DNA from: Malacoraja senta
Taxonomy: Eukaryota
NCBI GenBank assembly: GCA_038087875.1
Contig: CM075988.1
Coordinates: 7,194,001-7,258,000 of the forward strand
Length of the DNA stretch: 64,000 nt
Direction of reading: 5' to 3'
Positions 19,301-59,996 of the stretch are shown one piece after another (the first letter of the stretch is position 1; every line of letters begins with the position of its first letter). The position numbers were made by a program, and so were the translations under genes. The notes below the pieces were generated by a model, which saw only the letters and a program-made list of their open reading frames with translations, was not told the origin of the DNA and searched no databases.

Positions 19301-19595
19301 ATACAATTATGTTGGAAAGTGGCTCTTTTTGATTTTTGCCCTGGATTTGTCTGCCTGCCACTTTTACTTTTCACCTTGCTACCTATTGCTTCCACCCGCA
19401 TTTTGCACCCCTCTGTTTCTCTGCTCACCCATTTAAGAACCCCACCACCTCTTATTCTCCGTTTATTATTGTTTTCTTCTTTCCCCCCTACATGTTGGGT
19501 CTGAGTGCTTTCCTTCTCTGCCTCCTGCCTCACACACTGTCTAATAGCATTCTCTATTTGAGTCCCTCCCCCCAACCATTCTAGTTTAAAGTCTC
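16368..19595 (-). mobile_element. Young CR1 LINE, 5'-truncated near the ORF1/ORF2 boundary
   Basis: Flanked by ctgtca at 16362-16367 and 19596-19601; short tandem-repeat tail (catagata) at its 3' end; carries the endonuclease and RT. Confidence 0.95.
16465..19590 (-). pseudogene. CR1 ORF2 (APE endonuclease plus RT), in frame throughout except one TGA at 17092-17094
   Basis: LNARSIRNK, GITETWL, MGDFN, SDHN, YRPVSLTS, GVPQGSVLGP, FADD; the 204-aa ORF continues in the same frame after the stop. Confidence 0.92.
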
Positions 19596-20589
19596 CTGTC
19601 AGTGGATCACCAACTTCCTGACATACAGGAAGCAGCATGTGAGGCTGGGAAAGCACATCTCGGACCCATTGACCCTCAGCATAGGAGCACCACAAGGCTG
19701 CGTACTCTCCCCTCTCCTTTACACTCTCTACACCAACAACTGCACCTCCACAGACTCCTCTGTCAAGCTTCTCAAGTTTGCGGATGACACAACCCTGATT
19801 GGACTCATCAAGGATGGGGAGGAATCTGCCTACAGACAGGAAGTGACACCACTGGCGTCCTGGTGCCATTGCATCAACCTGGAGCTCAATGCTCTTAAGA
19901 CAGTGGAATTGATTGTAGACTTTAGGAGAGCTCCCCCTCCCCTCACCCCACTCACCATCAACAACACCACAGTCACATCTGTGGAGTCTTTTAAGTTTCT
20001 TGGAACCATCATCTCCAGGGACTTTAAATGGGGGGGGGGGGGGGGCCACCATCGACTCCACTGCCAAAATGACCCAACAGATGATGTACTTCCTGCGGCA
20101 GCTGACAAAACACAATCTGCCACAGGCAATGTTGGTCTAGTTTTATACGGCCATCATAGAGTCTGTCCTCACCTTCTCCATTATGGTCTGGTTTGGTTCA
20201 GCCACCAAGCATGACATCCGGAGACTGCAGCGCATCGTTCGGTCAGCCGAGAAGGTTGTTGGCTGCAACCTTCCCTCCATCGACGAACTGTACACTGCAA
20301 GGGCCAGGAAGCGGGCGGGTAAGATAATCTCTGACACCTCTCACCCTGGCCACAAACTCTTTGAAGGCGGCTCCGGACTGTCAAAGCTGCCACAGACATA
20401 AAAGAGAGCTGAGAGACATATAATTTCTTTGGAAAAGTGAAGTGGCGGATGTGCCTGGTGGTGGCATTGTGTTGGAGCCATTGGCCAACAACTTACCTCA
20501 AGATAACTACTCAAAAAGCTCAATCTCTTATCAAAGAACTTGCTCAATAAATAATTGTACACAACAAAAATAATATACCTTTAATTCGA

Positions 20590-32254: not shown

Positions 32255-34670
32255 CAATGTTCTCTTGATTCAGGATCAGTTCCTGTGGATTGGAGGGTAG
32301 CTAATATTATCCAACTTTTTAAGAAAGGCGGGAGAGAGAAAGCAGGGAATTATAGACCAGTTAGCCTGACATCGGTGGTGGGGAAGATGCTGGAGGCAAT
32401 AATAAAAGATGAAATAGCGGCACATTTGGATACCAGTAACAGGATCGGTCCGGGTCAGCATGGATTTACGAAGGGGAAATCATGCTTGACTAATTTTCTG
32501 GAATGTTTTCTAGGATGTAACTAGGAAAATGGACAAGGGAGAGCCAGTGGATGCAGTGTACCTGGACTTTCGTAAAGCATTTGATAAGGTCCCACATTGG
32601 AGATTACTGGGAAAAATTAGAGCACGTGGTATTGGGGGTAGGTTATTGACATGGAGAGAGAACTGGTTGGCAGACAGGAAACAAAGGGTAGGGATTAACG
32701 GGTCCTTTTCAGAATGGCAGGCAGTGACTAGTGGGGTACCGCAAGGATCGGTGCTGGGACCGCAGCTGTTTACAATCTTAGGCCCCCTTAGGCTGACCAT
32801 GGGTGTCTCCAGGGTGCTATTCCCTATATGGAGGATGCCTGTGCGTGACTATGTTTAACGTGGGGAGACTGGTGCACAGACAGCCACTCCATGGTCCTTG
32901 ACAGATCTGGGTCAGGATCCAGTGGCATGGAGTCCAAGACGACCGGTGACCTTTTTCTGCTGCAGCCTTCATCCGCCTTCCCAGCCGTTGTGATGCTCCA
33001 CTAAGATCAGCCATCGTCCTCCGCCTGTTCCACCGTTGAGGTCTTGATGGATTGCTCTGTCAGAGACCTCCCCCTCGACCTTACCGCCATGGGTGGCCCT
33101 ACCAGGAGCATAGCTCCAGACGGCATCACTCTCAGGATCTCATGTCCACATAAGCTTCTCCACCACGACAAGGTGACAATGCATGGATAAGTTATTTACA
33201 ATATACATCAATGATTTAGATGAAGGGATTCAAAGTAACATTAGCAAATTTGCAGATGACACAAAGCTGGGTGTCAGTGTGAACTGTGAGGAGGATGCTA
33301 TGAGGATGCAGGGTGACTTGAACAGGTTGGGTGAGTGGGCGGATGCATGGCAGATGCAGTTTAATGTGGATAAATGTGAGGTTATCCACTTTGGTGGCAA
33401 AAACAGGATGGCAGGTTATTATGATCTGAATGGTGTCAGGTTGGGAAAAGGGTAAGTACAAAGAGATCTGGGGGGGTCCATGTTCATCACTCGCTGAAAG
33501 TATGCATGCAGGTACAGCAGACAGTGAAGAAAACTAATGGCATGTTGGCCTTCATAACAAGAGGAGCAAAGAGGAGCAAAGGGCCCTAGTGAGACCACAC
33601 CTGGAGTATTGTGTGCAGTTTTGGTCTCCAAATTTGAGGAAGGACATTCTTGCTATTGAGGGAGTGCAGCGTAGGTTCACAAGTTTAATTCCCGGGATGG
33701 CGGAACTGTCATATGTTGATAGAATGGCGCGGCTAAGCTTGTATACTCTGGAATTTAAAAGGATGAGAGGATATCTTATTGAAACATATAAGATTAATAA
33801 GGGATTGGACACGCTGGAGGCAGGAAACATGTTCCCGACGTTGGGGGAGTCCAGAACCAGGGGCCACAGTTTAAGAATAAGGGATAGACCATTTAGAACG
33901 GAGACGAGGAAAAACGTTTTCACCCAGAGAGTTGTGAATCTGTGGAATTCTCTGCCTCAGAAGAATAGAGAGAGTACAGAGGAGATTTACTAGAATGTTG
34001 CCTGGGTTTCAGCAACTAAGTTACAGAGAAAGGTTGAACAAGTTAGGTCTTTATTCTTTGGAGCGCAGAAGGTTAAGAGGGGACTTGATAGAGGTCTTTA
34101 AAATTATGAGCGGGTTAGACAGAGTGGACGTGGATAAGCTTTTCCCATTGAGAGTAGGGAAGATTCAAACAAGGGGACATGACTTGACAATTAAGGGACA
34201 GAAGTTTAGGGGGAACATTAGGGGGAACTTCTTTACTCAGAGAGTGGTAGCTGTGTGGAATGAGCTTCCAGTGGAAGTGGTGGAGGCAGGTTCGATGTTA
34301 TCCTTTAAAAATAGATTGGATGGGTATATGGACGGGAAAGGAATGGAGGGTTATGGTCTGAGTGCAGGTAGATGGGACTAGGAGGAAGTATTTATTTTTA
34401 ATTTATAAAAAGAAAAAAAAAAATTTAATGTTCGGCACGGACTTGAAGGGCCGAGATGGCCTGTTTCCGTGCTGTTATGGTTATATGGTTATGTAGTTAT
34501 ATAGAAGGCAGTGGAGGCCAATTCTCTGGATGCTTTCAAGAGAGAGTTAGATAAAGCTCTTAAAGATAACGGAGTCAGGGGATATGGTGAGAAGACAGGA
34601 ACGGGGTACTGATTATGGATGATCAGCCATGATCACATTGAATGGCGGTGCTGGCTCAAAGGGCCAAACT
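32255..34670 (+). mobile_element. Decayed CR1 RT region with two nested insertions
   Basis: YRPVSLTS, YLDFRKAFD, FADD, RPHLEYC; nested inserts at 32777-33194 and a second CR1-subfamily 3' piece at ~33964-34503. Confidence 0.9.
32777..33194. mobile_element. Short non-coding retroposon insertion resembling an RTE-clade 5'UTR derivative
   Basis: Flanked by tttacaat at 32769-32776 and 33195-33202, splitting the CR1 motif QLFTI. The family call rests on recalled similarity only. Confidence 0.55.
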
Positions 34671-36393
34671 CCTGCCTAATCCATTGACTAATATGAGGAG
34701 TATCAGAAGAGAGGAGAAAACAGGTATGTAGACATTTTTCTTCACCTTGTCAAGTCCCTGAAATGCTCAGTGTGCTGGAGTTGTAATGTTCGGATCACAA
34801 TCTTACAGCTCAATTCTCTTTTCCAGGCTTCTTTATTGGAACAAATTTCTCTCATCTTTGACAATCGGTTATACCTAGACTGTATGGTTCCCTGGATATT
34901 GAGAAGATATTGAATGGACAAACTTTGTGTCACCTGCAGTTCCAAGTGCCACAAGGGGTGGGGTAATTGGAAACAGAACACTGGGGCAGGGAAAACGCTG
35001 TGAGAGGAGCATATGGTACGATATGTCTGGTGGTGGTGTCTTTTATCGAGGGGGTTTAGAAATGATAGCACAAAATACATGTAAATTAATATTTAGCTAA
35101 TTCAATATGTCAAAACAATATAAAACCAAAAATTCTAAAACCTAAAAGTGTTGATTTGCCAATCACTTCTATACAGCTATATATATACATATAAAATGAT
35201 TCAGACCTACCTGGAACCAGCACAAAAACTGGGATTTAACCAGATTCCTAGCTAAATTGGCAGTAGCATCATCTAATCTGCTGCCTGTACTATAGTCTGC
35301 TCCTGTGTTCCTCTGATCATCTTGTCATATCATCCACAGGACAGCATGATTTACCACTGATTTCCCAGCTCGCAGGCCGGGACACCTGCCCTCGGCCTGT
35401 GCCCAGTTAAGCCTGTGCAAGCACGCACGTCCCCATTCAATTGATAAGGAAATATTGAAGCAAGGTAATTAGCTATGTTTTTCTTATTTACAATTTAGCT
35501 CTAATGATTTTAATTGACACCCCTACGTTGCAATCTTTTATGTGAAGATACAAAGCAAATTTAACTTTTTAACAAATATTATATTTTTTAAGTGCCTCTA
35601 AATGTTTGTGAATGCCAATTTTAGAGTCATGGAGTTATACAACTTGGTAACTAGTCCTTCAGTCAAACTCATCTGTGCCGAACAAGCTGCTTGTTTAAGC
35701 TAGTACTATTTGCTGCCATTGGGCTATCCAATATACCTGTCCAAATGTCCTTTAAATGTTATAAATGTACATGCAGGGCTGCCAACATTGGGTGAGAGTT
35801 GGGAGTGAGAAATTGCGAGAGACCAAGCCCGAGGGAGCGTAGCGACCGGGGGGGGGGGGGGGGGGAGGAGGGTGTCCCCCTCCCATTGGTACGGAACATT
35901 TGCATTTTCAGCTTGAAATTGTGCAATATGGTTCATACTGTAGTGAGTCTTTTAACTTACACTTGAATACAATATATATGCTTTAAATTGGATTGGAGCG
36001 TTTTTGGATGGGAGGGGGGAGGCTGTGCGATCACTGATCACTGGCCTTGGGGGTACCCGGTGAGGGAGTGGAGCAACCGAGTGGGGAGAGGGTGTGGAAG
36101 AAGGGTGTCATCCCTCCCAGGGTAGGAACTTTTTGAAATTTGATGTATTAAAATCATGTTTTAGTGCACTGTGGAAGTATGATTTCAATGTTTTTTGTAT
36201 GAAGTATTTTTAAGACGTAACTTTATAAGAGGTAACTTTATCCACACAAAGGGTGATGGGTGTATGCAACAAGCTGCCAGAGGAGGTAGTTGAGGCAGGG
36301 ACCATCCCAACATTTAAGAAAAAGTTAGACTGATACATGGATAGGACAGGTTTGGAGGTATGGACCAAAAGCAGGTAGCGTAGCTGGGACATG

Positions 36394-37070
36394 TCAAGTC
36401 AAGTTTATTTGTCACATACACATATGAGATGTGCAGTGAAATGAAAAGTGGCAATGCTCGCGGACTTTGTGCAAATAACAAACAAACAAACAAACAAACT
36501 ACAAACAGAATGGAACAGAATCACATATTCTTTTACATATTAAATATTGTGGGCGGAAGGAAAAAGGGGGAAAAAAACAGCAATTAAAAAAAACACAGTA
36601 GAATGGTACAGTAAAGTTAGTCCCTGGTGAGATAGGAGTTTACAGTCCTAATGGCCTCTGGGAAGAAACTCCTTCTCAACTTCTCCGTTTTCACAGCATG
36701 GCAACGGAGGCGTTTGCCTGACCGGAGCAGCTGGAACAGTCCGTTGCTGGGGTGGAAGGGGTCTCCCATGATCTTATTGGCTCTGGAGTTGCACTTCCTG
36801 ATGTATAATTCCTGCAGGGGGGCGAGTGAAGTTCCCATAGTGCGTTCGGCCGAACGCACTACTCTCTGCAGAGCCTTCTTGTCCTGGGCAGAGCAATTTC
36901 CAAACCAGATTGCAATATTTACCGGACAAGATGCTTTCCACAGCCGCTGAGTAGAAGCACTGGAGGACCCTCGGAGACACTCTGAATTTCCTCAATTGCC
37001 TGAGGTGGTAAAGGCGCTGCCTTGCCTTACTCACGAGTGCTGCAGCGTGTGATGTCCATGTCATATCCAT
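36394..37070 (-). mobile_element. Rex1-type LINE 3' fragment nested in a CR1 3' fragment
   Basis: KARQRLYHLRQLRKF, YSAAVESIL, DPFHPSNGLFQLL, RRSFFPEAIR. Confidence 0.85.
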
Positions 37071-37481
37071 GTTGGTGGGTGTGGGCAAGTTGTGCCGAAG
37101 GGCCTGTTTTCACATTGTATCACTCTATGACTACATTATCCCTCCACCATGCATGAATGCTTCAAAATCAAGTGATCGAGTTTTATTGCCATATACTCAA
37201 GCATAGAAACATAGAAAATAGGTGCAGGAATAGGCCATTGGCCCTTCGAGCCAGCACTGCTATTCATCTAAAACCAGTACCTCTCTGCGTGAAGAAAGTT
37301 TGTCCTCATCTCAGTCCTAACTGGCCCCCCCTTTATTCTTAAACTGTGACCCATGGTTCTGAACGCCCCCAACATCGGGAACATTTTTCCTGCAGTTACA
37401 GTAAGTGAAAATCTAGCAGGCAAGCACCCCCATTTGAAGTCCACTATCTTCCACCGTTTCTACCCAGTGCTTGGTACTTAC

Positions 37482-37627
37482 TTCCAGCAGCCACTGGTTG
37501 TCCTCCAGGATGCACCGAGCCGCAGCCTGATCCATGCAGGTCACCTGGGCGAATTCGGCACAGAGACTTTCACGGCAGCGGCGCAACGCTTCGACGGCCC
37601 GGGACTCTTGCACTGAGGCTGCTCCAT
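37482..37627 (-). pseudogene. TDP2: Captured TDP2-like exon 1 (UBA-like domain), frameshifted
   Basis: RESLCAEFAQVTCMDQAAARCILEDNQWLLE followed by a GTAAGT donor (37481-37476); GCCATGG start at 37627; resembles human TDP2 RRLLCVEFASVASCDAAVAQCFLAENDWEME as recalled. Confidence 0.72.
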
Positions 37628-37871
37628 GGCCGGAGTTGCAGTGAGCGACTCGCCAGCCCGGCAAACCCTCGCCAGCCCCGCTCCCCGTCCGCATCTGTCC
37701 CCGCCGCTGCTTCTGCTTCCAACACCCGCGGCCCATGCAGTTGATATGAGTTTTGAAATTTTCGTTGATCACAGAATTTCTCACAACAGAGCGTAAGAAA
37801 TTTGTGATCAGCGTGAGAATTTGGTGAAATGCGTGATTCTCACGCTCAATGCATGGGAGTTGGCAGCCCTG

Positions 37872-38840
37872 CCTCTCTATCAAACTATCCCCCTCTCCCC
37901 CTCTCTCTCTCTCTCCCCCTCTCTCTCTCTCCCTCTCCCTCTCTCTCTCCCCCTCTCTCTCCTCTCTCGGTCCCCCTCTCTCTTTCCTCTCTCTCTCCCA
38001 CTATCTCCCTCCCCTCTCTCTCCACCTCTCTTTCTCTCCCCTCTCTCTCTCTCTCCCTCCCACCTCACTCCTCTCTCTCCCCCTCTCTTCCGCTCTCTCC
38101 CCCTCTATCTCTCCCTTCCCCCTCTTTCTCCTCTCTCCCTCTGTCTCTCCTCTCACCCCCTCTCTCCCCTCTCCCCCTCTCACTCTCCCCCTTCCATCTC
38201 TCTTCTCTCTCCCCCCTCTCTCTCCCCCCTCTCTCTCCTCTCTCTCCCCCTCTCTCTCCCTCCTCTCTCCCTCTCCCCCTCTGTCTCCTCTCTCTCTCCC
38301 CCCTTTCCCCTAACTCTCTCTCCCCTCTCTTTCCCCTAACTCTCTCTCCCCCTCTCTCTCCTCTCTCTCCCCCTCGCTTCCCCCTCTCTCCCCCTCTCTC
38401 TTTCTCCCTCCCTCTCTATCTCCCCCTCTCTCTCCCTCTCCACACACTCTCTCCTCTCTCTCTCTCTCTTCCCCCCCTCTCTCATCTCTCTCCTCTCTCT
38501 CCCTCTCTATCCCCCATTTCTCCCTCCCACCTCACTCTCCCCCTTGCTCTCTCCCCTCTCTCTTTCTCCTCTGTCTCTATCTCCTCTTTCTCTTTGCCCC
38601 CCCATCTCTCTCTCTTTCCCCCTCTCTCTTTTACCACCCTCTCCCATTCTCTCCTACCCTCTCCACCCCCTCTCTTCCCTCTCACCCCTCTCTCTTCCCC
38701 CCACTCTCCCCCCTCTCTCTCCCCCCCTCTCCCTCTTCTCTCTCTCCATTCACACCCCCTCTGTCTCTCCCCTCTCTCTCCTCTCACCCCCCTCTCACTC
38801 CCCCCTGTCTTCTTCCCCCCTCTCTCTCTCCACCTCCCTT
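37872..38840 (+). repeat. ~1 kb polypyrimidine (CT/CCCT) low-complexity tract
   Basis: Almost entirely C and T; the source of the spurious Leu/Ser/Pro and Arg/Glu/Gly ORFs. Confidence 0.95.
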
Positions 38841-38854
38841 TGAGAGTCTGTCCC

Positions 38855-38928
38855 TTCGGCACAGACTCTCACGGCAGCGGCGCAACGCTTCCGACGCCTC
38901 CGACGGCCCAGGACTTGCACTGCTCCAT
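38855..38928 (-). pseudogene. TDP2: Second, truncated copy of the TDP2-like exon 1 start
   Basis: Aligns to 37554-37627 (SPGPSEASEALRRCRESLC), then breaks into the CT tract. Confidence 0.65.
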
Positions 38929-40346
38929 GGCCGGAACTGCAGCGAGCCACTCGCCAACTCCGCAAACACTCGCCAGCCCCGCAAATACTCGCCAGCCCCG
39001 CAAACACTCGCAGCCCAGCAAACACTCGCCAGTCCCGGTTCCCCGGATCAGTTCCCGCCGCTGGTTCTGCTCCCATCCCTTCCTCAGCCCCTGCTCTCCA
39101 ACAACCGCGGACCATGCAGTTTATCCGAGTTTTGAAATTTTCGTTGATCACAGAATTTCTCACCACAGAGCGCGAGAAATTTCTGATCAGCGTGAGGGCG
39201 TGAGAGTTTGCTTGAGGGCGTGATTCTCACGCTCAAAGCGTGAGAGTTGGCAGTCCTGGTACGTGGCTCTACCACTTTGTTAACAGCACATTTCATATAC
39301 CCACCACTCTCTCTCTTAAAAACTTGCCCTCAGTTCCCTTTAAGTCTTTTCCTTCTCACCATAAACCAATGTCTGCTAGTTTTACACTTCCATACCCTGA
39401 AAAAAGACTTCCAGTATCTACGTTTTATGACCTCATAATTTTATAATCCTCTGACGTCACCTCTCAACCTCATTAGCTCCTTAGGCCTCTCAGCTGGCCT
39501 ACTCATAATTCAAGCGCTGAAGTCAGGGAACATCCTTGTAACTCTTTTCTGCACCCTCTCTAACTTAATCACATCCTTCCTATAGCATGACAACCAGAAC
39601 GGCACACAATAGGCCAAGTGAGGCCTAACCAATGTTTTGTACAAGTGTAACATGACATCCCAACTGCTGTAGCCAAAGAAGGTAGCAATGACATATGCCA
39701 TCATCACCATCCTGTCTACCTGTGTTGCTACTTTCATGGAACTATGTACTTGTATCCCTACATCTCTGTTCAGCAACACTCCCCAGGGCCATGCCATTCG
39801 TCCTGCCCTGGTTTAACTTCCCAAAATGTATCATTTTACACTTAAGTTAAATTCCATCTGCCATTCCTCTGCCCACTTTCCCAACTATTCAATACCCCAA
39901 TATAATCTTGGAAAATCTTCATTGTCCACTATGTCATCGATTTGGTGTCATCTGGAAACACGTTAATTGCCACCATTGTTGTACAAATCATTAATATGGA
40001 TAACCAACAGGAGACCAAGCATACCTTGTAGCACACCTCTGGTCACAGGGCTTCAATGCAACTCTCTACTACCACCCCCTGCCTCCTGCCACCGTTAACA
40101 TTGTATCCAGTCGGCTAGCTCACCTTGGGTTCTAATCCTCTAACTCTGACCGTAATGCGGGACCTAGTCAAAATCCTGCCAAAGTATAAGTAGACAACGC
40201 CTTGTCTTTGTCAATATTGTTGGTCACCTTTTAAATAAAATCATGAGACATGATTTCCTATGCTTTGTTGACTATCCCCAATCAATCTTTGCCTTTTCAA
40301 ATGCAAATTGAACCCTGTGTCTCAGAAATGCCCTCCATCAGATTTA

Positions 40347-41043
40347 AGGGCCTGTCCCACTTAAATGTCCTTGGCACGCTAATTACGCGACCTCGTGGTC
40401 GCGTTGAGGCGCGACGGTCCCGCGAAGGTCGCACGCGACTTCATTCGACCGCACAGCTGTCTGGAGCGCGTGACGTCATTTGAAGATGGACGCAAAATGC
40501 AGGAGTAACTCAGCGGGACCGGCAGCATCTCTGAAGAGAAGCAATGGGTGATGTTTCGTGTCGAGACTCTTCTTCAGTCCGAAAGAATGGTCTTGACCCG
40601 AAATGTCACCCATTGCTTCTCTCCAGAGATTCTGCCGGTCCCGCTGAGTTACTCCTGCATTTTGTGTCTATCTTCAATTTTCTTGGCCCCGCTCTGGGAG
40701 TAGGAGTGGGGGCGGATCCGGATCCGCAACGGCCGTGAGCCCCAGGCCGAGCTCGGCGATCGTTTGCCTGCATCTGCTGCTGTTGAAGGTGAGACGTTGC
40801 GTCGCGCCAGGGTCTTGGGCCTGTCCCACTTTAGCCGTCAGTTCCGCGACAGGCCGTTGGCGCGCAAAGATTTCATTCGCTACAGAAATTTCGGAGCCCC
40901 ACGCGATGCCGCGCACAACTACATACCTCTCTACGCTTCTCACCGGGACCGGCCCCACGTGGCCATATGATGCTCGTGCGCCTCAACGCGACCACGAGGT
41001 CACGTAATTTGCGTGCCAAGGACATGTAAGTGGGACAGGCCCT
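40347..41043. mobile_element. PIF/Harbinger MITE containing a palindromic pLTR pair
   Basis: ~65-bp TIRs AGGGCCTGTCCCACTTA...TAAGTGGGACAGGCCCT; TTA TSD at 40344-40346 and 41044-41046; pLTR hairpin at 40482-40676. Confidence 0.9.
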
Positions 41044-41169
41044 TTACCACCATGGTTGATAGGTTCACAAACCTATAGTTTCCTGGCTTGTTCTTGCAGC
41101 CCTTCCGAAATAAAGATATTAAATTAGCCAATAGATGATCTACTCTCACAAAACTCAAATAAAATTCTT

Positions 41170-41730
41170 GTCGCAGTCGTACAACATTGGTTACACCTCA
41201 CTTTGAGTGTTATGTACTTTTCTAGTTGCCACGCTATAATGTGTAGCAATGGAGAGAGTACAGAAAAAAACTCACCAGGCTGTTGACTAGATTGGATGGC
41301 TGTAGTTATTAGGAGAGATTGAATAGGCTGAGTTTATTCCCACATTGGAGACTGAGGGGTGACCATCATAATGTTATGAGGGGCATAGATAGGATAGATG
41401 GCTATATTCTATCTCCCATTACAATGGAGTCTCGAACTAGAGGGCATGGTTTAAGATGTGAGAAGAGAAATTTAAAGGGAATCTGGGTACGTTTTTTCAC
41501 ATATTGAGTGGTGAATATCTGGATCAAGTAGCCAATGGATATGGTAGTAGCATATACAATTTCAATGTATTAAAGGTATTTAGACAGGTAGTTGCAGAGG
41601 AAAGTAGTAGTCATGGAGGAAAGGAGGATACAAGTCCAATGAAGGCAAATGGGATGAGCATATATAAGCATCACAGTCGGTATGGATGAGCTGAGCTGAG
41701 AGTATTTCTGTGATATAGATTTTATGATTC
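41170..41730 (+). mobile_element. Very old CR1 3' fragment
   Basis: RLNRLSLF, RLRGD and ESRTRGH remnants. Confidence 0.6.
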
Positions 41731-42092
41731 TTTGATTTTGTTTTTCTACCAATTTACTGTTTATCTACCTGGTTTACAAGGTTTTAACACAATTATTGTA
41801 ATGGATACCAATTAAACCACAGAATAAGCACTGAGGTGGAAAAAAAAAGTGATTTGATTTGGTTTATGAGCCAGTGGTTTATAAAAGTTAATCATTAACT
41901 GGAAAGATCAAGTGCTCCATCTCGGGATTGAGGCTTGAAGTCACTCTTGTCCGAGTGTCAAATGCACAAACAACTGAGCCATAACTGACACCTTTTACAT
42001 GTATAGTTATAGAATCAATACTGTATTCATTATGGAAAACAAAGGGAAACAATTGGCTGGTGGATCTTGAACCAAGTTCAGTAAGTAGAACT

Positions 42093-46700: not shown

Positions 46701-48721
46701 GTCAAGATGAGACATGAATATCTATTTATTGTGCCTCATATGCATGTTCAGGTTTTTTATGTACATCGCCACATCTTATTTTACATAGATATTTGGAATT
46801 TGCAGTGTGGGAAACAAAGGATATTGCTCATTTTTCCAGTATTCTCAAACAGAAAGCAGAAATGGTTTTAGGTCTGGTCTCTATATTCATCACCCTTGGA
46901 AAAATATACCGCAATGCCAACATCTGATCACTATTCAGTGACGCTGCTTGAATGTGCACATGAACCCTTGATAAAGTAAATAATATTTATTGTTGAAACC
47001 CAACTACACTTGGCCAGAATTGCTCAGGTAAGTATCACGTGGCCACTAGGTATGAAAAGACAACATGGATTTATGGATGAGAAGAAAAAGGACAAATTAG
47101 GCTGAAAATGTCTGCATATCAACCAAGAATGGCCTTATTTTGCGCTGACATTTCTATGATTTCGGTCCTTCTCTTCTATTTAATACATGTCCTCAATACT
47201 AATCTTTTTTCACTACGTGCTGCTCAATTCAAAGAAAATCTTTTCATTTCCTTTTTCAACAGAAACCACGGACCCTTGGGAATTGGCAGAAAAATAAAAA
47301 CAAACAATTCATTTCGACTTTTCTTTTAAAGAAGGTTTGGCATTTAAATTAATGCTTGTCTGCCGTTCCTCAACAGATATTGCAATATCCACTCAATGTT
47401 TTTCTCAAAAATAAACTCAGGTAAGTTACAAATGCTGCTTTTGCACACAGACGGAGTCCAGGGACTGTGGATTGCTTCTCAGAAGCTTCGAAGGGGTTTT
47501 GCTTCTATATGCTCCACAAGATAATGAGGGAATAGTAGAATCAAGCCTGCCAGGAATCCCACAATCAATATACACAGCAGACAATAGCGGCCAATGAAGA
47601 AATTGTCGAAAATCTGAAAGATAAAGAAAAGAGGAATGGATCCAACTTTCAATACATTCTCCCTCCAAGGGAGAAAGCAAGCAAGTTGCAAATATATTTA
47701 AAGCAAACAGCTTAGTAAGCAACAAGCAGATATTCTTAGCAACTTGTTTTCCTCTCTTTATGGGAAACCCTCGGCTGCAACCAAGTGCATCCCTTTATCA
47801 AGATCTCATTGATTATCAACTGAGCTGGTGAACAAAATCAAAAATGGCAATCTGAATATTACATCTAATAATGCTCATCTGAATCAGACAAAGCAGAAAT
47901 GCTGCGATAATACTTTGTCAAATATAAACTTTCCCCGAGGACCTGAGGTGCTCAAATTAAAAGGCCATGGTTTTGATTACCAATGTGTGCTGAATTGGCT
48001 TATATGACTCAGGTTGATGGAAGCATCGGTGAAAATGGACTCAGTACTCTAAACTATGAATGAGAAACAAACAGAGCTCCCAGTCTTGAGTGCTGTCTAC
48101 AAATATCCAACATTGCAGAGAAAGGATAGTGCCAGTGGTAATTTTACCCTAGAAAGAAACGACACTGTAAGGAGTACAAAGATAGGTTGTTTAATTCTAC
48201 GCAGCCGATTGTAAAATGAACGGAATATTGAATGTAAATTTTCTTCACGATGTAACAAAATTATGGACCGACTCCAAGCAAGCTTTATACAGTTGTTTTG
48301 TTATTTCCCTCCCCATTGAGTACAGAAGGGGAATTATTCATGTTCTGTTGTATCTGAAGTAATATTTTAATAACAGAAACTGATAAAAGCAAATTTAAAA
48401 GGCATATAAGTACAACATTTGTCTGCAGAGCTTATGCCATTTTGGTGTTTGGGTGCTGATTTGTTTCCAATAAAATATGTAATACGTACACATATTTACA
48501 GGATGTCATCACATTGGAAAGGGTGTTACCTAGTTAATAATGTCTGCTGTACATAAGCAGACCAGGCAAATAATGTACCAGTGTGCAATGTTGATTTGAT
48601 TAATGCAGGAAAGTTCTGTACCGGAAACCGCAGCTCTCTGTAATAACCAGTTAAGGGTCCTTTAGTTGGCATTTGCGAGGAGTGCCTCATGACAGGACGA
48701 ATAAGGAAGACACCAAGCAGT

Positions 48722-48905
48722 CGCAGACACAAAGTGCTGAAGTAACTCAGCGGGTCAGGCAGCATGTCTGTAGAAAAAGGATGGGTAACGTTTTGGGTTG
48801 GAACACTTCTTCAGACAGTCTGAAGGGTCCCAACCCGAAATGTAACTCATCCTTTTTCTCCAGAAATGCTGCCTGACATGCTGAGGTACCCCAGCACTTT
48901 GTGCC
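48722..48905. repeat. Palindromic Penelope pLTR pair
   Basis: Arms meet at ttcagac-a-gtctgaa (~48810-48824). Confidence 0.75.
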
Positions 48906-49299
48906 TAATTTTGGTATAAACCAGCATTCCTTTCTACACGCAAGACAACAAGCAGATATCTTAGCAACATCTTTTCCTCGTGTTATGAGACAACCCCAGC
49001 TGCAGCTAAATACCTCCCTTTAACAAGATGTCATAGATTAGGAACAATGATGATGATGAGCAGATGGACTCTCATTGGGAGGTCATACCCATTCAATATC
49101 TTCAAGAACAAATTCTCCTGAACTGGAGGAGGTATTTATGTCAGACAAAAGGAACTGCAGATGTTAGAATCTTGAGCAAAAAATACAAAGTGTTGGATTA
49201 ACACGGTGGATTCGGCAGCATCTCTTGAAAACATGGATAGGAGATCTGGTCGGGACCCTTCAAACTTTCTTCAGGTGGTTATGCTTCAGTAAGGTCAAT

Positions 49300-51080
49300 T
49301 CAGTGGGAACTGCCAAGTATCTCAGCCGCAACTTTGATTACAATGTGTGCCTAGGTTGCGGCATCCAAGAAATTCTACAGGTTGTGATACATCCCAGGTA
49401 CGCTGAAGATCTGGCAATCTGCAGTATGCTCTTCCTTGGAGACACAAGAGACCGCAAATGCTGGAATCTGGAGCAAACAATAAATAGCTGGGGGAACTCA
49501 GCAAGTAGGCAGCAGCTGTGGAGGAAATGTGAAAATGGCGTTTCGGGTCAGGACCCCTCTTCAGGCTCATTACACTGTTGCTTAATGTATAAAGGAGTAG
49601 GGGGGAGGGGGGCAGAGGGATGGATGGAAGCTACAGACGTGTTCCAAGGTAATTAAACAGACGTCATTCACTTGCTAAAAACCTGCAGATGGAATGAGGA
49701 GACAGCTCTGTGACAATTGGTGACTTCCCTATAATATAGGAAGCTATGAACCTCACTGGATATCAGCACAGTTGCATTACAAATGGAAGATATATCACTC
49801 CTTTCATGACCAGTTGGTATGTGACCACATGCACAGAGATGTGCAGTTATTGCTTGGTATTCTTGCAGCATCCATGATCTTTCATTTTATGGCAGTGCAC
49901 ATAATGTTCATGTACAGTGTAGGAAGGAACTGCAGATGCTGGTTCATGTACACGTATATCAAGACTGACCCTTATACTATATATATGGAAGACTTGTATT
50001 CTCTCCAGGCTGCCTCTGCCACAGAACTACCCCAAACAATCAAACTCTCGGTGAAGCTCTGTAAAACATGGATCACATTCCACCTCAGGAGAACTTGCTA
50101 GCAAAGACAGAGATCAATGACAAAATTTCAACTATCTCCAGTGCCCTCGCATATTTGGAGAATGGAAAATACTATTTGAAGACTAATGGGCCTGTCCCAC
50201 TTACGCATCTTTTTCGGCAACTGCCGGCACCCGTCATAGGTCGTCGAAAATTTTCAACATGTTGAAAATTCAACGGCAACCAGAAAGACGCTATGACTCT
50301 TTGGGCGACTGAGACTACTCACGACCATACAGGCGACACACTGGCGACATGTCCGCGGGGTGAAGCCTGTATGGTCGTGAATGGTCGCCCAAAGAGTCGT
50401 ACCTTGTTCTGGTCGCCGCTGCATTTTCAACATGTTGAACATTTTTGGCGACCTGCAACGACCTATGACAGGTGCCTGCAGTCACCGAAAAAGTCCCGTA
50501 AGTGGGACAGGGCCATAAAGCTCACTGACTACTGAACAACAGTAATCTCCACCCTCTTATGTTTCAGAGACTTTTGCAGTTAGCACCACTCTGCAACATA
50601 GAAGTACTACACATGCTGCCTCTGTAAAATCCTTAAATCCATTTTTTGGAATAGATGAAACTTCAAGCAAGTAATTTCCGACTCTGAGGGTCTGAATCTT
50701 TGTTTTTTCATTTGTTGGTGACCCTCAGATATGGATAGCAGAATGGCTACTGGGTGAGAAAGGCCATCCTCTCACCACATTGCACTTGACTGTGCTGTTT
50801 AACTCACACACAGAGGAGAGCCGCATGTTGCCATGATGCCACACATAATGTGATAGCAGTGACCATCAGTGCGCTCAAATAATGGTTGCTTTAGCATTGA
50901 TCAATAGAGCAGGTCCCATGACAGTTGACAGACTGCTGTACATACACCAAGCTCATAACCATGAAGATTAAACTCCTGTTATAAGCGTGGAGTGGAGGAG
51001 GTGATGGTGGAGAGATTATGGTGGAGGAGCAGGAGGAAGAGGTGGAGGAGTATGAAAATGTGGAAAAGGAGGATGATACA
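49300..51080 (+). pseudogene. Decayed PIF/Harbinger (HARBI1-like DDE) transposase
   Basis: Ordered remnants YHSFHDQLVCDH (~49795), VIAWYSCSIHD, EWLLGEKGHPL (50741), HDATHNVIAVTISALK and an acidic tail match HARBI1-family motifs HSINVQ.VCD, WPGS.HD, WLLGD.GYPL and H..TR.VIE.T.G.LK. Confidence 0.65.
50187..50515. mobile_element. PIF/Harbinger MITE
   Basis: TIRs TGGGCCTGTCCCACTTACG...CGTAAGTGGGACAGGGCCA; TAA TSD at 50184-50186 and 50516-50518; internally palindromic. Confidence 0.9.
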
Positions 51081-51185
51081 TTCCAGATAGTCCTTCCTGA
51101 TCAGGCTGCCTAAGACAACTTAAATGATTCTGTTATCAATAAACACTATCCTATTTCCCCATAAATCAACACTGTCATACTTTAC

Positions 51186-51455
51186 GGTGGCCTGAACGTT
51201 CAGTCTACATCCTGGTGGCCTGAACGTTGAATTCTCCCAATTCTGCTAGCCCTGGCTGTCCCCTCCCCTTCATCAGCCATCTGGTTGTCTCCTCCCCTCC
51301 CCCAGCCCTCGGGCTCCTCCTCCTCCTTTTCCTTTTTTCCTTTCTTCTCCCCACCCCCTATCAGTCTGAAGAAGGGTTTCGGCCCGAAACGTTACCTATT
51401 TCCTTCGCTCCATAGATGCTGCTGCACCCGCTGAGTTTCTCCAGCATTTTTGTGT
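51186..51455 (+). mobile_element. Penelope 3' end/pLTR insertion with hammerhead-like core at 51366
   Basis: Flanked by a 15-bp duplication actgtcatactttac; CTGAAGAagggtttcggcccGAAACgtt. Confidence 0.82.
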
Positions 51456-51857
51456 ACTGTCATACTTTACTTTGAAGTTGACTGTCATGGCTTGATCATT
51501 ATGTCAAAATAAATGTTGATGGAAATTTAAGAAACAAAATCAAATTTATAAACAAAATCACACATGGTACCATACAAATCATATCTCAGTTGTCACATTG
51601 CCCAGTATTTGCAACTTAGAACTACAGTATCTTCACAAACTCCCTGAAATTGATGAATGTAGCTTGCATCGGAATGATCTTAATGCTACTTCTGAATGTG
51701 GACAGTGAGGATTCAAACTCCAACTACTTGCTCATAGCTTTAGGCTTTCTTCTTTTGGGTAATATGTAGGAGGAGCATACTCACATTTACATACATGGAA
51801 AGACTATCATATATTGGAATCTGTTAGAACAAGTATCCTAACAGTTGACTTTATAAT

Positions 51858-52382
51858 TGTCACATGTACCAAGGTACAGTGAAAAGCTTTTTGTTGCGTG
51901 CTATCCAGTCAATAAAAAGAAGATACATGCTTACAATCAAACTGTCCACAGTGTACGGAGACGGGATAAAGGGTATAATGTTTAATGCAAGATAAATCCA
52001 ATAAAGTCTGATTAAAGATAGTTTGAAGGTGTCCAATGAGGTAGATGGGAGGTCAGGACTGTTCTCTAGCAGGTGAGAGGACAGTTCAGTTGCCTGATAA
52101 CAGCTGGGAAAAAACTGTCCCTGAATCTGGAGGTATGCGTCTTCAAAATTCTGTACCTCTTGCCTGATGTAAGAGGGGAGAAGAGGAAGTGACCGAGGTG
52201 ACTGGTCCTTGATCCCGAGGCAGCGTGGTGTAAATGGAGTCAATGGAAGGGGGGCTAGTTTGCATGATGGTCTGGGCTACATCCACAACTCTCTACAATT
52301 CCTTGTGGCCTTGGTTGGAGTTGTTCCCAAACCATGCTGTGATGCATCAGGATAAAATCCTTTCGACGGGGCATCTGTAGAA
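51858..52382 (-). mobile_element. Rex1-type LINE 3' fragment
   Basis: Same family as the fragment at 21210-21760 (cagctgggaaaaaactgtccctgaatctggaggt). Confidence 0.7.
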
Positions 52383-52894
52383 TAGAACCATAGCTGCATG
52401 GTTTCATTGTAGGAAACAATGCTGAACACCTAAAGATTCAGCTGCGAGAAAGATAGAGCAAGAAGAATGCAGACCATACACCAATGTGTACTAGATAACA
52501 AGCAACACAGTGGTGCAATAAGCATTGGTGCTACCCTACACCTCCAGCAAACTGGTTTCAATCTTCACCTCTGGTACAATCTGTGTAGAGTTTGCACTTC
52601 TCACTGTAATCGTATGTGTTTCCCCATATGCTCTTGGTTCCTCCCACATCACAAATTTATGTTAGTTGGTAGGTAAGTTGGCCACAGTAAATTGCCTCTA
52701 GTGTGTGGGCGTGTGGCAGAATCTATGAGGGAGTTGATATGACTGTTGGGAAAGAAATTACTCGATGGGCCAATTTGACTTCCTTCTCTGTCATGAGAAA
52801 ATATGGAAAAACATAATTGAATATAGAGTGCTTCCAACAGCTGGAACAGATGGATAGTTGAGATCAGGAGACTGCCCTTTAAAAAAAAAGGAAC

Positions 52895-53490
52895 ATAGAT
52901 TCATAGAGTAGTACTGCACGAAAACAGGCCTATCGTCCCAAGTTACCCATGCCGATCAAGTTGCCCCATCTATACTAGTCCCACCTGCCTGCTTTTGGCC
53001 CATATCCCTCTAAACCTTTCCTGACCATGTATGTGTCCAAATGTATTTTAAGTATTGTTATAGTATCTGCCTCAACTACCTTCTCTGGCAGTTCATTCCA
53101 TATATCCACCACCCTCTGTGTGAGTAGGTTGCTCCTCAGATTCCAATTAAATCTTTCACCTCACCTTAAACATATGCCCTCTGCTTCTTGATTCCCCTGC
53201 TCTGGATAAAAGACGCTGTGCATCTACTCAATCTATTCCTCTCATGATCTTATATATCTCTATAAGATCACCCCTCATCCTCTTGTGCTCCAAGGAATAA
53301 AGTCCTATCCTGCCTATCCTCTCCCTATAGCTCAGGCCCTCAAGTCCTGCAAACATCCTCGTAAATCTTAAATCCTGGCAACATCCTCTTAAATCTTCTC
53401 AGCACTCTTTCCAGCTTAACAATGTCTTGCCTATAGCAGGGTGACCAAAGCTGAACATGATACTCTAAATTTAGCCTCATCAACATCTTG
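52895..53490 (-). mobile_element. CR1 3' fragment
   Basis: RLNLEYHVQLWSPCYRQDIVKLERV motif plus a CR1 3'UTR. Confidence 0.8.
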
Positions 53491-53520
53491 AATAATGAAA
53501 GGAGTCTAGATTTCATGTTG

Positions 53521-54220
53521 GCGAATGGCATGTTGGCCTTTATAACAGCGAATGGCATGTTGGCCTTTATAACAGCGAATGGCATGTTGGTCTTTATAAC
53601 AAGAGGAGTCGAGTATAGGAGCAAAGAGGTCCTTCTGCAGTTGTACAGAGCCCTAGTGAGACCACACCTGGAGTATTGTGTGCAGTTTTGGTCACTTAAT
53701 TTGAGGAAGGACATTCTTGCTATTGAGGGAGTGCAGCGTAGGTTTACAAGGTTAATTCCCGGGATGGCGGGACTGTCATATGCTGAGATAATGAAGCAGC
53801 TGGGCTTGTACACTCTGGAGTTTAGAAGGATGAGAGGGCATCTTATTGAAACATGTAAGATTAAGGGTTTGGACACGCTGGAGGCAGGAAACATGTTCCC
53901 GATGTTGGGGGAGTCCAGAACCAGGTGCCACAGTTTAAGAATAAGGAGTAAGCCATTTAGAACTGAGACGAGGAAACACTTTTTCTCAGAGAGTTGTGAG
54001 TGTGTGGAATTCTCTGCCTCAGAGGACAGTGGAGGCAGGTTCTCTGGATGCTTTCAAGAGCGAGCTGGATAGGGCTCTTAAAGATAGCGGAGTCAGGGGA
54101 TATGGGGAAAAGGCAGGAAAGGGGTATTGATTGGGGATGATCAGCCATGATCACATTGAATGGCGGTGCTGGCTCAAAGGGCTGAATGGCCTACTCCTGC
54201 ACCTATTGTCTATTGTCTAT
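53521..54220 (+). mobile_element. CR1 3' fragment with a triplicated 27-bp 5' end
   Basis: (ANGMLAFIT)x3, then RGVEYRSKEVLLQLY...RPHLEYC. Confidence 0.9.
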
Positions 54221-55544
54221 TTCAGAATAATGAGAAAAAATGAGTGGATGAGCTTCAGATATTCAGAAATAGCATGACAAAATAGAAGCAAATTTTCTCT
54301 ACAAATGTTAATAATTTTTTGAAGCAACTTTTCACAAATCCTAACAACCTAAATGAAATTTAACAAGGAATCATCAATGCCCAGATACCTGCGCCATCCT
54401 GATCATCTACCGTTTATGAGTGACAAGTACAGATTTCTATAACCATGCACTATTTACATGCGCTCGACGAAGAAAATTAGTGCCATGCTTGCAATCCAGT
54501 TTTAAAGAATACTTTATCTCAAATATCTAAGTAATGTTAACATGCAAATCTGCAACTTCATGTGCGGTCTAAAATATTAATCAGGTTTGAGAGGAAAACA
54601 GCCAAAAAGAGACAGAGACAGAATGCTAACGAATGGTAATCATTGCCCCTCCAGGAGTGTTTGGCTGTGTACTCTATTCCAGCAATACAAGGAGCTTGAT
54701 TCACTACAAAGATGTTGAGGAAGAATAAACTCCACATCAGCGGCAGTACAAAATCTCCTGTGGACTAGCAGGGTGCTCGTTTAACACACCTCATTCTTTA
54801 ATGAGCCAATTAGTGGGGCCTGGTACTGTGAGTACTGGCCTGGCCTGGTACACAGAGCTTGGGCCATGTAATATTAATAGTTCATTGGTTCATGAGCAGA
54901 GGTCCTGCCCTGTGCCCTGCTAATTGGTATCCTGGTAGTTATTATTTGATCATAGGTGGAAGTTAGCCGACGCTCACTGCAACACAGTTCCGTTTTAATG
55001 TCAAGTTTGTAAAATCTCACATCTAATCAGCTGGGGGTGGTGTTGCAGTCATCTAGTGAACTATATAAGCCCAGCTAAATTATTCCCAAATTAGGGGACT
55101 ATCATTTTTAAGATCTTGCGTATTTTTCTATGACATCCTGTTCCTAACTCGTTATTAATCGAAGGACACCAATACCAAACAGAAACAATCAATAAGCAAG
55201 GCAAACGTGCACATTTCCTTCCATACAGCTGCAGCTAGCCCAGATGCAGTATATATCTTTATATTGCCTCCCTGAAATCAGCACCTATAACGTGTCAGAA
55301 GGTGGGTTTCTGAACCTCCTCTGAGGAAGCAAACTGCTGGAACTCTCAGTGAACGGAGACCACTGGAAGTACTGACTACAAAAATGGCTATACAAGTTCA
55401 TGTCACACTCACCTTTTGAAAAATGTTATTTTTCAATTAATACCATTGGTCTAAATTCTATTCCAAAATGCAACTCTGATCCCAAAGCAATACCAGCCCA
55501 AAAAAGTAATTTAAGCAGCGTGCTTAAAATAGAGGGTGGTATTG

Positions 55545-55840
55545 GTGGCGCAGTGACTAGAGTTGCTACCTTACAGCGCCAGAGACCATGGTTCAGTCCT
55601 GATTACGGATGCCATCTGTATGGATTTTTTATGTTCTCCCTGTGACCGCGTGAGTTTGCTAAAGGTGCTCTGGTTTCCTCCCACACTCCAAAGCTGTGCA
55701 GGATTGTAGGTTAAATGGCTTTGGTAAAATTGTACAAAATTGTCCCTAATGTGTACGATAGTGCTTGTGTACAGAGATCGCTGGTCGGTGCGGATTCGGT
55801 GGGCCGAAGGGCCTTTTTCTACACTATCACTAAACTGAGC
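55545..55840 (+). mobile_element. tRNA-derived SINE followed by an old CR1 3' fragment to ~56280
   Basis: ggtggcgcagtgactagagttgctaccttacagcgccagagacc head. Confidence 0.75.
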
Positions 55841-58800
55841 TTAACTAAAATATTCTCCTGAGAATGTTGCATGGATTGGAGAACTTTAGTTGTAGGTAAA
55901 GATTATAGTCTGGGCTGGCTTTTCCTGGAGCGATAGAGACGAAAGGGTTATCTGATAAAAAGTATTTCAGATTATGAGAGACTTAGATAGGTAGATAGCT
56001 ACAATCTCATCCCATGGTAGGGTATCAAAAACTAGAGGGCATAGTTTTAAGGTGAGAAGTAGAAGGTTTAAAGGGGATCTGAGGAGCAAAATTTTATTTT
56101 ACGCCAGAGAACCAGAGGTGGTGACGGAGTCAGATACAATCACTATGTTTAAGAGACATTTAGACATGTAGTTAAATAGGCAAGGAATAGAAGAGTACAA
56201 ACCTAATGCATACAATGGTATTAGTGTGGATGGGCAAAAAGGTCAGCATGGATGTGGTGGGCTGAGCATTTTTGTGCAGTCCAACAATGACTGAAATAAT
56301 TCTGCTAAAAAGTGCTAGAGACCATTAGGACTCGAATCTCTCAAAGGCAGCTAGCTTGGAACTCATGCATTGCATTACAGAAACATGATTACCAAGATTT
56401 GTTTTAGCACAACCACACCATTAGTCACATTCTGCAATTTTCTTAATACATCTGGAAAAGCGCTCACAAACACTATGTTAATTCCACTGTCATCAACTTG
56501 AACAACTCCAGTGTTTCATAACATAGCCTACAGTTGAGTATTTCCAAGTTCTCTTGTCTGGATTTCCTCTCAAAGAAATTCTATATCTGTTGTACAATTG
56601 GCTTTCAGTCCTCAGACTATATTAGCTCAGATATTCCTCCAGGCTCTGTCACGTTGTTCCTTTTCAACACCAATGAGCTCTACTCATTATGCAACCTAAT
56701 CTTATGCTTCTGATTCGACTCGAGGTTCATCGGCTTCTTTCAAACCACATACCCTCAGGCAACCATCCTCATTCCTCTGCAGTGTAATTAAATTAACATT
56801 TAATTTTTGAATTCCAGCAAATTAATGAGTTAATAAAATTGTTGATTCTTTCATTTCTTTACAAACAGTTTGTTCACCTTACTCATATCAATAAATAACT
56901 TCATCCTCTTTGATTTCTTGACTCTTTATATACATTGTTGAAAATGATCTCTACTCTGACCTCAGATGAAATTCTACACTTGATCTTATTCCTTGCTAAC
57001 TTCATATATTCTCCTCAATGGTCATTAATTATTTATAGTCATGTTTTAAAATTGAGATTCTGCAATGAGATTCCAACACTGTCAGACTTATCTCAGTATT
57101 TCATTGTATTTCATCATCTTTTTTCTTGTTCACTCAGACTTAAAAAAAACCTATCTTCATTAAATATGTTTTTTACAATCATAAGGCAATTTTTTTTCCT
57201 TAGCTGACAATTTATATCAAACTAGAAGTGGGAGGTGCTACCATGGGAATAGTAACACTTTTTGGAGATGCAAAAATTTGAAAAGAAAAAGGGTTGGGGA
57301 GAAGGCAGGAGGATGGGGTTGAGAGGGAAAGGTAGATCAGCCATGATTGAATGGCGGAGTAGACTTGATGGGCTGAATGGCCTAATTCTGACCTTCTGCT
57401 CCACTGGAGGTTTCTGTCCTCCTTACGACACATGCGTTATGATGTTACATGCTTCTCATCTAATATGTGAATCCCACCTCATCCTGATTGCACTTTCACA
57501 ACCCCCCCACCCACCACCAACTTCCTACTTTGTTAATGCTTCTACAATCATTGCCCCTCTAAACATTACTTGTAAACTTAACTTTACATACTCTGTGCCT
57601 TTCTTCCTCTTTTCTGCGCCACACTCGTTTTGGAACTTTGTATTTATTCTCACTTTTTCCCTTCCTATGATTTATTAACAAAAACAGTGTGACATCACCT
57701 AAACTAAACTTCTTATTTTGCCTTTGCTCTCTTTTTCCATTTTTCTTTTCCTGCAACATAAGCATGGTCCAATTTTCACAATTTTAGAAACTGAAAATCA
57801 TTTGAGAAAAATTTAATGACAATAAAATTTAGATCCTAATACGAGGCTCTAGTATGCGGACATAATTTATAAATCAAAGATCAGAGGTCACATCAACTCA
57901 GGTGACCTCAATAAGTGAGCCTTGATTCTTTGACCAGAGGATGACATGGGAGCCCAAAATCATTCTCTGTAATTAAATGGATTGAGTGAACTTGTGATAT
58001 AGTGAAGGGAATTTATTTTACTGCTGGGGTTTATTGTGTTTTTACTTTAAACCTTTGATTTATTCTTCTGGGAGTTTTCCTGGATTTATGCTGTAGGTAC
58101 AGTACTTCATCTCACACTGAAATCAATATGTTGTGCACTGCATATGTGAAAAATGAGGTTGCCCGAGGCTTGATAAAGTTCTGTTGCTTGCACACAGTTC
58201 ATTGTTTTTAATAAAAGCTCAGAGGCAGGTTATAAAACTACAGACACAAACACTGTTCTTACCACTTCTTCTGTCACTGGTTCAGGTGTTTCCTTAGCTC
58301 GAGGAAAAAAGATGAGGATCATGGTGATTATCAATGCCAGGTGGAAAACCAATACAATCGAAAGCCAGCTGCATACAATAACACATCGATTCCTTATTAC
58401 AGAACAGACAATATTGCAGAAGCCATTTTATTTCAGAGGTTTCTCAACTACCTAGCAATGCAAGGTACTCGGAGACCAAAATTATTGAGTGGAAGACAAA
58501 TTTACTTCAAACAAATGTAAACTTGCACTGGTGCACTGATTCTTGCTAATTAATACATTTCGCTGCTCATTTGTACAATATATACAATCCTACTTTAATA
58601 TTTTGTGCAATTATTGCTCTATTTGTAATGCAAAATTGTGCCTGTGGATTTGTATGCACTCATGTGTGCATGCAATATAGCTAGATAGATCATTGCAAGC
58701 AATTTACTTCTTGAATATTGAACAGTGGCAAATGTGTGAAACAAAATGCAAGTACTTAACAAGTATTCTGAGAGTGTATTAAGGAGCTTTTCTAAAAAAA

Positions 58801-59850: not shown

Positions 59851-59851
59851 C

Positions 59852-59996
<145 letters not shown>

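Follow-up and report, generated by a model that had tools for sequence, protein, structure and literature searches.

Two copies of a captured tdp2 first exon within a terminal-inverted-repeat transposon of the skate Malacoraja senta

The locus and its transposon

The window (the whole 64,000-nucleotide stretch analysed here, positions 7,194,001 to 7,258,000 of Malacoraja senta contig CM075988.1) contains two convergent genes and, in the gap between them, the element described below. A Pfam scan of 221 of the 268 listed non-repeat frames, together with a hydrophobicity scan, identifies the neighbours as a cyclic-nucleotide phosphodiesterase (PDE) gene, represented by four catalytic-domain exons (PF00233; 2770-7216, plus strand), and TMEM218, represented by three exons (47482-60180, minus strand), one recognised by a Pfam match and two from hydrophobic frames that we take, on known features of the protein, to belong to it. 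Elsewhere in the window, an open frame of 1,013 residues (17092-20136, minus strand), encoding both an endonuclease and a reverse transcriptase domain, marks a young, largely intact LINE, and 67-nt inverted arms (96% complementary, 565 nt apart; 40346-41044) mark another MITE-like element, which encloses a 95-nt palindromic SINE pair (40480-40677).

Both exon copies noted in the initial annotation read along the minus strand and have their ATGs where it placed them, at 37627 (copy 1) and 38928 (copy 2), and both lie inside a single non-autonomous terminal-inverted-repeat (TIR) transposon of 3,485 bp (35774-39258) with 13-bp TIRs (Table 1). The interval 37482..38928 previously given for the whole feature leaves out the 5′ part of the exon and the ends of the element. 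The element has a single left end but two right-end modules, and is interrupted by ~1.2 kb of nested LINE/SINE fragments, presumably of CR1-like families. Specifically, the 13-mer at the start of each module recurs in inverted orientation at 35774, matching the inner end (37871) at 13/13 positions and the outer end (39258) at 12/13, and a subterminal 6-mer occurs 2, 3, and 4 times in the three ends, vs 0.13 expected per 150 nt. The 7-mers flanking 35774 and 39258 agree at 6/7 positions, at one locus, with a background of 0.0019 per test and 0.034 over 18 tests, which is weak after correction; the flank at the inner right end (37871) does not match the left flank. A 7-bp TSD at the element ends is probable. 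An 866-letter contig (run X5 record 17, depth 24) tracks the left flank over 35500-35768 and then gives way to 285 letters foreign to the element, marking a possible empty site in a related skate. No transposase family was found among the window frames scanned with Pfam, and Rfam gave 0 matches over 34000-42000. Within the nested repeats, the segment 36380-37067 is a high-depth repeat with strongly strand-biased polyA reads (~1,500-2,100 vs 190-390) and a Pfam ALKBH8_N match, which we take to be a retroelement 3′ region.

Table 1. Features of the element and its immediate flanks, in window coordinates
Feature	Positions	Strand	Remarks
Left copy of probable 7-bp TSD	35767..35773	+	6/7 letters identical to 39259-39265; the mismatch is a CpG-type transition
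Left 13-bp TIR	35774..35786	+	13/13 to inner right end, 12/13 to outer right end; jump in read depth
Left arm	35787..36233	+	2 copies of subterminal 6-mer; summed depth mostly ~1e5, as on exon
Nested LINE/SINE fragments interrupting the element	36234..37394	.	Match other repeats in the window; depth up to 10-40x that of the element
Captured start of tdp2 intron 1	37395..37481	-	Opens with GTAAGT donor (37481-37476); same intron read by P0002, P0005, P0010
Copy 1, second ATG to donor	37482..37627	-	146 nt, with 10-nt deletion; encodes approximately the first 30 of 43 UBA_4 positions
Copy 1, upstream part of exon 1	37628..37720	-	1-nt deletion near 37680; upstream ATG lost in 25-nt deletion at 37718
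Fortuitous 85-codon open frame, copy 1	37482..37736	-	ATG 37736 to donor
Inner right arm and inner right TIR (37859-37871)	37721..37871	-	Flank unlike left flank
CT-rich low-complexity tract between modules	37873..38840	+	~1 kb
Copy 2, exon 1	38855..39076	-	Upstream ATG 39076, second ATG 38928, ends 38855; 6-, 2-, and 2-nt deletions; 19-nt tandem expansion 38948-39037
Outer right arm and outer right TIR (39246-39258)	39077..39258	-	
Right copy of probable 7-bp TSD	39259..39265	+	6/7 match to left flank

Helitrons are not known to have TIRs or TSDs, and typically begin with a 5′ TC and end with a 3′ hairpin followed by CTRR. The element carries a 9-bp hairpin near its outer right end (-9.6 kcal/mol), followed by CTGG and a T, and bat Helitrons have captured first exons (PMC4224331), so a Helitron or Helentron was weighed. 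The termini, however, are perfect 13-bp inverted repeats with a flanking 7-mer duplication, the hairpin is built of the subterminal 6-mer in inverted order, and the left end opens with CA rather than TC, which makes that assignment highly improbable.

Identity, reconstruction, and decay of the exon

The exon derives from tdp2. Its 3′ 36 codons match the UBA chain of human TDP2 (6q00_B, E 5.2e-05) and positions 2-30 of the 43 positions of Pfam UBA_4 (E 0.00037, just under the curated cut-off), and the 52 residues obtained by merging the two copies align with TDP2 of Leucoraja erinacea, Amblyraja radiata, and Rhinoraja longicauda in 46/54, 44/54, and 41/54 columns, respectively, with 2 gap columns at the junction. 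Because the exon both matches the human UBA domain and aligns to three skate TDP2 proteins, the likeness is not a chance one. A protein search yielded 3 matches among 66 candidates (the Leucoraja and Rhinoraja TDP2 proteins and an unnamed 112-residue protein), and the Amblyraja protein was added through a cluster look-up; the parent gene was compared only as protein, from these other skates. The Leucoraja protein, annotated from the second ATG, opens with the same first 11 residues as the merged sequence, the Amblyraja and Rhinoraja proteins begin 37 and 32 residues earlier, and similarity to the host proteins stops at the donor, in line with the original proposal that a real first coding exon of tdp2 was captured. 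The captured exon is CpG-island-like (GC 0.66-0.67, CpG o/e 0.82-0.99 vs 0.39) and lacks the last third of the UBA domain. Human TDP2 residues R56 and F62 have been examined for ubiquitin binding (PMC5137425); judged by spacing, their skate equivalents appear to sit in the next exon.

An intact donor and a frame open from ATG 37736 are also what would be seen if copy 1 belonged to the tdp2 gene itself, as an exon 1 followed by a long intron, or had arisen from it by segmental duplication nearby. Against this, a tblastn search with three query proteins, including two full-length TDP2 sequences, found no tdp2 exon beyond exon 1 within the 64-kb window, so that no further tdp2 exon follows in the 37 kb downstream, the catalytic-domain exons expected of a functional gene are absent from the window, and the neighbouring genes are unrelated. 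In addition, the junction is of the transposon-family type, unlike that of the three host genes, and read depth is high, with copy 1 carrying private changes relative to most reads (for example at 37538, where 47,829 of a depth of 49,109 differs in run X1). The probability of this reading is close to negligible.

The deletions of the two copies are complementary. Pairwise alignment confirms that copy 1 lacks 10 nt held by copy 2 (38892-38901), and that copy 2 lacks 6 nt (37616-37621) and 2 nt (37607-37608) kept in copy 1; a third gap in copy 2, of 2 nt (37565-37566), had been overlooked. As the initial annotation stated, the union of the copies is a stop-free frame of 156 nt (52 codons) with the identical peptide, running from ATG 37627, a second ATG in a strong Kozak context (G at -3 and +4), to the donor GTAAGT. 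It is, however, not a joint product as far as the donor: copy 2 ends at 38855, in mid-exon, and copy 1 alone supplies the final 72 nt of the merged sequence. Alignment over the full length of the module common to both copies covers 307 sites, 32 of which differ. Their deletions do not overlap and hence arose after the copies separated, which bears out the idea of independent decay. Within the captured exon of copy 2, a 19-nt unit is expanded to 4.8 copies (38948-39037).

Two elements of the earlier description do not hold. Firstly, copy 1 does not have a broken frame: it runs for 146 nt from the second ATG to the exon end at 37482, followed by GTAAGT, and the 25, 1, and 10 nt that it has lost add up to 36 nt, leaving 85 codons open from ATG 37736 to the donor. 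This open frame is fortuitous, a one-in-three event, and carries no weight as evidence. Secondly, the merged 52 codons are not the whole exon but the 3′ part of a probable exon of ~84-86 codons, of which they form the last 52: all four family proteins (see below), like the host proteins of Amblyraja and Rhinoraja but not that of Leucoraja, start 32-61 residues upstream in the same frame. In particular, since all four family proteins have an upstream in-frame start and copy 2 keeps an upstream ATG at 39076 (G at -3 and +4; in copy 1 this ATG falls inside the 25-nt deletion), the captured exon would be ~84 codons long. Use of the second ATG may nevertheless occur, the Leucoraja-type start being the annotated start in one of the three hosts. 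The host genes carry two extra residues in the junction region, from which it follows, at the level of sequence, that the merge rebuilds the transposon family's version of the exon and not the host's. The merge itself is a modest one, an ordinary sign of a coding passenger that is expected from any two decayed copies.

Natural copies with an open frame exist. Four unnamed in-frame proteins in public assemblies match the merge at 49/52 (P0002), 46/52 (P0005), 40/52 (P0010), and 34/36 (P0011) residues. All four have an in-frame start at least 32 residues upstream of the second ATG; P0002, P0005, and P0011 have the junction of the merge, answering the earlier call for copies that keep the frame open; P0002, P0005, and P0010 continue into the same intron sequence as copy 1; and the P0005 frame extends into the right arm of the element. 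In wider searches, 50%-representative proteins returned 2 matches (one known family member and one unrelated repeat protein), the ESM Atlas returned UBA-like clusters only (≤0.85), as a lead, an exact pattern scan for other copies as DNA in JGI metagenomes returned 0 matches, and a protein scan returned 596 pattern matches with 0 confirmed.

Four family proteins open through the exon, together with the 85-codon frame retained by copy 1, could suggest that selection keeps the exon in frame in some copies, yielding short UBA-like peptides or decoys. The family proteins, however, were found by virtue of being open, and the changes that they carry do not have the pattern of a selected frame. CpG-type changes account for 9 of 20 distinct residue changes in five family proteins vs 1 of the 19 seen among the three host genes (Fisher p 0.008), the share by opportunity being 17 of 344 possible changes, and 12 of 19 family changes fall at host-invariant sites vs 36/51 expected (p 0.31), as expected without constraint; position 14, in the indel region, was left out of this count, which changed it from 13/20 to 12/19. 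The comparison is an indirect one and not equivalent to dN/dS, in that codons from the window serve as proxy ancestor and the proteins were picked for being open. The excess of CpG-type changes among family copies favours neutral decay, and the changes as a whole point to methylated, unconstrained copies in which conserved sites are not spared. Together with coverage of only positions 2-30 of UBA_4 and the apparent location of the R56 and F62 equivalents in the next exon, this makes a selected frame very unlikely, and the hope of a frame kept by selection is not borne out.

Copy number, dispersal, and possible splicing

Public reads reveal that the exon is multi-copy. Half or more of 49 words sampled from copy 1 are present in 14 of 22 listed runs, which come from six coded organisms and six studies. 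Contig depth was read over 35500-37875 in runs X1 and X5, with runs X19-X21 (share ≤0.06) left out. Summed contig depth is 1.0-1.1e5 (X1) and 0.75-1.7e5 (X5) on the exon and 0-72 (X1) and 37-804 (X5) on the flank at 35500-35659; the left arm and the exon have similar summed depth (~1e5), and the nested LINE/SINE pieces have ~1e6. Among the positions listed, 98-124 contigs cover each exon position in X1 and X5, under a ceiling of 128. Division of summed depth by the median depth of the long contigs among those listed gives estimates of 9,744 and 6,345 copies, and further division by 31 (an assumed contig overlap) gives 314 and 205, summed depth not being copy number and any count depending on normalisation. 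The family is therefore a high-copy one, of roughly hundreds to thousands of copies. In Amblyraja, a family-type copy is located on a 193-Mb contig and tdp2 on a 151.6-Mb contig, indicating that the copy is dispersed. The linkage of exon and TIRs in other copies is suggested by their equal read depth and by the P0005 frame entering the right arm; no other full-length member of the family turned up as DNA, and no left arm-to-intron joint was present among the 15 of 554 joints listed.

We estimate at roughly 85% the probability that both pieces are decayed modules of a skate family of non-autonomous cut-and-paste DNA transposons (a Pack-TIR) that carries the tdp2 5′ end and has spread to hundreds or thousands of sites. 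A founder element would have captured the tdp2 5′ end, comprising the CpG-rich ~84-codon exon 1 together with its donor site and the first 87 nt or more of intron 1. The element would then have been amplified by a transposase supplied in trans, acting on the 13-bp TIRs and subterminal repeats, with the exon carried along as a passenger to hundreds or thousands of sites, and the copies would have undergone methylation-driven neutral decay. The present locus probably became a composite in which two right-end modules share a single left end, whether through a nested insertion, through duplication within the element, or because a more distant right end was used, and LINE/SINE insertions would later have broken the composite element. 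Lying between convergent genes, the locus most likely has no function here.

A further question is whether some family copies work, as portable first exons, and perhaps promoters, whose captured donor is joined by splicing to host genes lying downstream, giving chimeric transcripts. A search of longer proteins with the exon as query gave 3 matches among 1,118 candidates: two TDP2 proteins and the RefSeq granzyme K-like protein XP_032892111.1 (P0013) of Amblyraja radiata. The first 46 residues of XP_032892111.1 are of the family type, unlike Amblyraja's own tdp2 type; these residues follow the frame of copy 1 with a single shift and end at the captured donor, at which point the window, read without splicing, runs into a stop. 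This protein model suggests that an element copy can be spliced onto another gene, and represents either a real exonisation or an annotation artefact. Being an XP_ record, it is presumably an automated model. The CpG-island-like composition of the exon, and bat Helitrons whose captured first exons behave in this way (PMC4224331), also argue for portable exons. On the other side, the protein evidence is one automated model among 1,118 candidates, frameshifted, with an element piece that encodes no UBA. PolyA reads on the exon (one polyA run, ~6% of it read) are thin and on both strands (7.5-16.5 vs 4.1-15.4), with no transcription start or loose end on the exon among those listed, which does not favour promoter activity, and no same-strand acceptor gene was found in the window downstream of the donor at 37481. 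Working copies of this kind are, on balance, doubtful.

The fullest form of this proposal, which we likewise regard as tentative and rather unlikely, is that a P-like MITE family spread a CpG-island first exon with a working donor to thousands of skate sites, and that host genes now use a subset of these copies as alternative first exons, as at the thorny-skate granzyme K-like locus. If true, the family would constitute a natural promoter and first-exon trap operating throughout the genome in a vertebrate lineage that evolves slowly, at a copy number far above that of any multicopy animal Pack-TIR in the survey reported in PMC8277862.

Comparison with known systems

The element works like a Pack-TIR, having TIRs at both ends, a host-gene fragment with an identifiable parent, and several dispersed copies. 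As in the animal Pack-TIRs described by Tan et al. 2021 (PMC8277862), a host gene fragment resides in a non-autonomous TIR transposon and is moved by transposition. That survey reports 370 animal cases in 100 genomes, four of them multicopy, so multicopy gene capture by cut-and-paste transposons in animals is reported as rare (4/370) and low-copy; its multicopy example has three copies, vs an estimated hundreds to thousands here. The pipeline was aimed at young cases, with 90% identity to the parent, and old high-copy families could therefore have been missed (PMC8277862). The words "shark", "skate", and "TDP2" are absent from the main text of PMC8277862, and "DNA transposon" is absent from the text consulted of the Squalomix preprint. 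Our literature search found no paper on a tdp2-exon TIR family, on tdp2 in cartilaginous fish, or on skate transposons of this kind, and no match to the TIR strings with "terminal inverted repeat"; the search covered the literature and not repeat libraries, and Repbase or Dfam may already catalogue the family.

A short TIR starting with CA, combined with a 7-bp TSD, fits the P superfamily and hAT alike. Termini of the hAT-Tip100 type are short TIRs starting with CA, accompanied by subterminal repeats. The element here resembles hAT families in its short CA-starting TIRs, its subterminal repeats, and possibly its 7-bp TSD. hAT families with a 7-bp TSD exist (PMC4455052), and the P-superfamily elements Galileo and 1360 make 7-bp TSDs (PMC3698922). 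The P-superfamily element compared, zebrafish Pdre2, also has a 13-bp TIR, and by eye 9/13 letters agree with its printed TIR, but its TSD is 8 bp rather than the probable 7 bp here, and the first 11 positions contain 4 mismatches (bioRxiv 10.1101/2024.03.22.586318). The Repbase rule for assignment asks for the same TSD length and at most 1 mismatch in aligned terminal positions 1-11 (PMC4455052); the element does not qualify under that rule when set against Pdre2, the sole P-superfamily element compared. No THAP transposase was found for the element among the window frames. We put the chance that the transposase came from the P superfamily at about even, and consider a hAT source a substantial but lesser prospect.

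The host TDP2 proteins of Leucoraja, Amblyraja, and Rhinoraja share the exon 1 sequence and have two more residues at the junction, as well as the full UBA and the catalytic domain, which are missing from the element. Copies of the element will attract tdp2 reads and can enter automated gene models, a practical trap for annotation. The weight of the finding lies in the carrier, a TIR family of high copy number with exon 1 of tdp2 and its donor as cargo. Among vertebrates, HelibatN3 of vesper bats comes closest in what it carries and in its scale: it captured the NUBPL promoter and 5′ UTR along with the first exon and some of the intron that follows, is present in about a thousand copies, and through one of them contributes a splice site to an SGSM3 transcript (PMC4224331). 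HelibatN3 is a rolling-circle Helitron of a mammal (PMC4224331), whereas the element here has TIRs and a probable TSD and is from a cartilaginous fish. At hundreds to thousands of copies, a first-exon family would be to TIR elements what the bat case is to Helitrons, and would provide a large replicated test of whether host genes come to use a captured first exon and its donor, the known parent gene serving as control.
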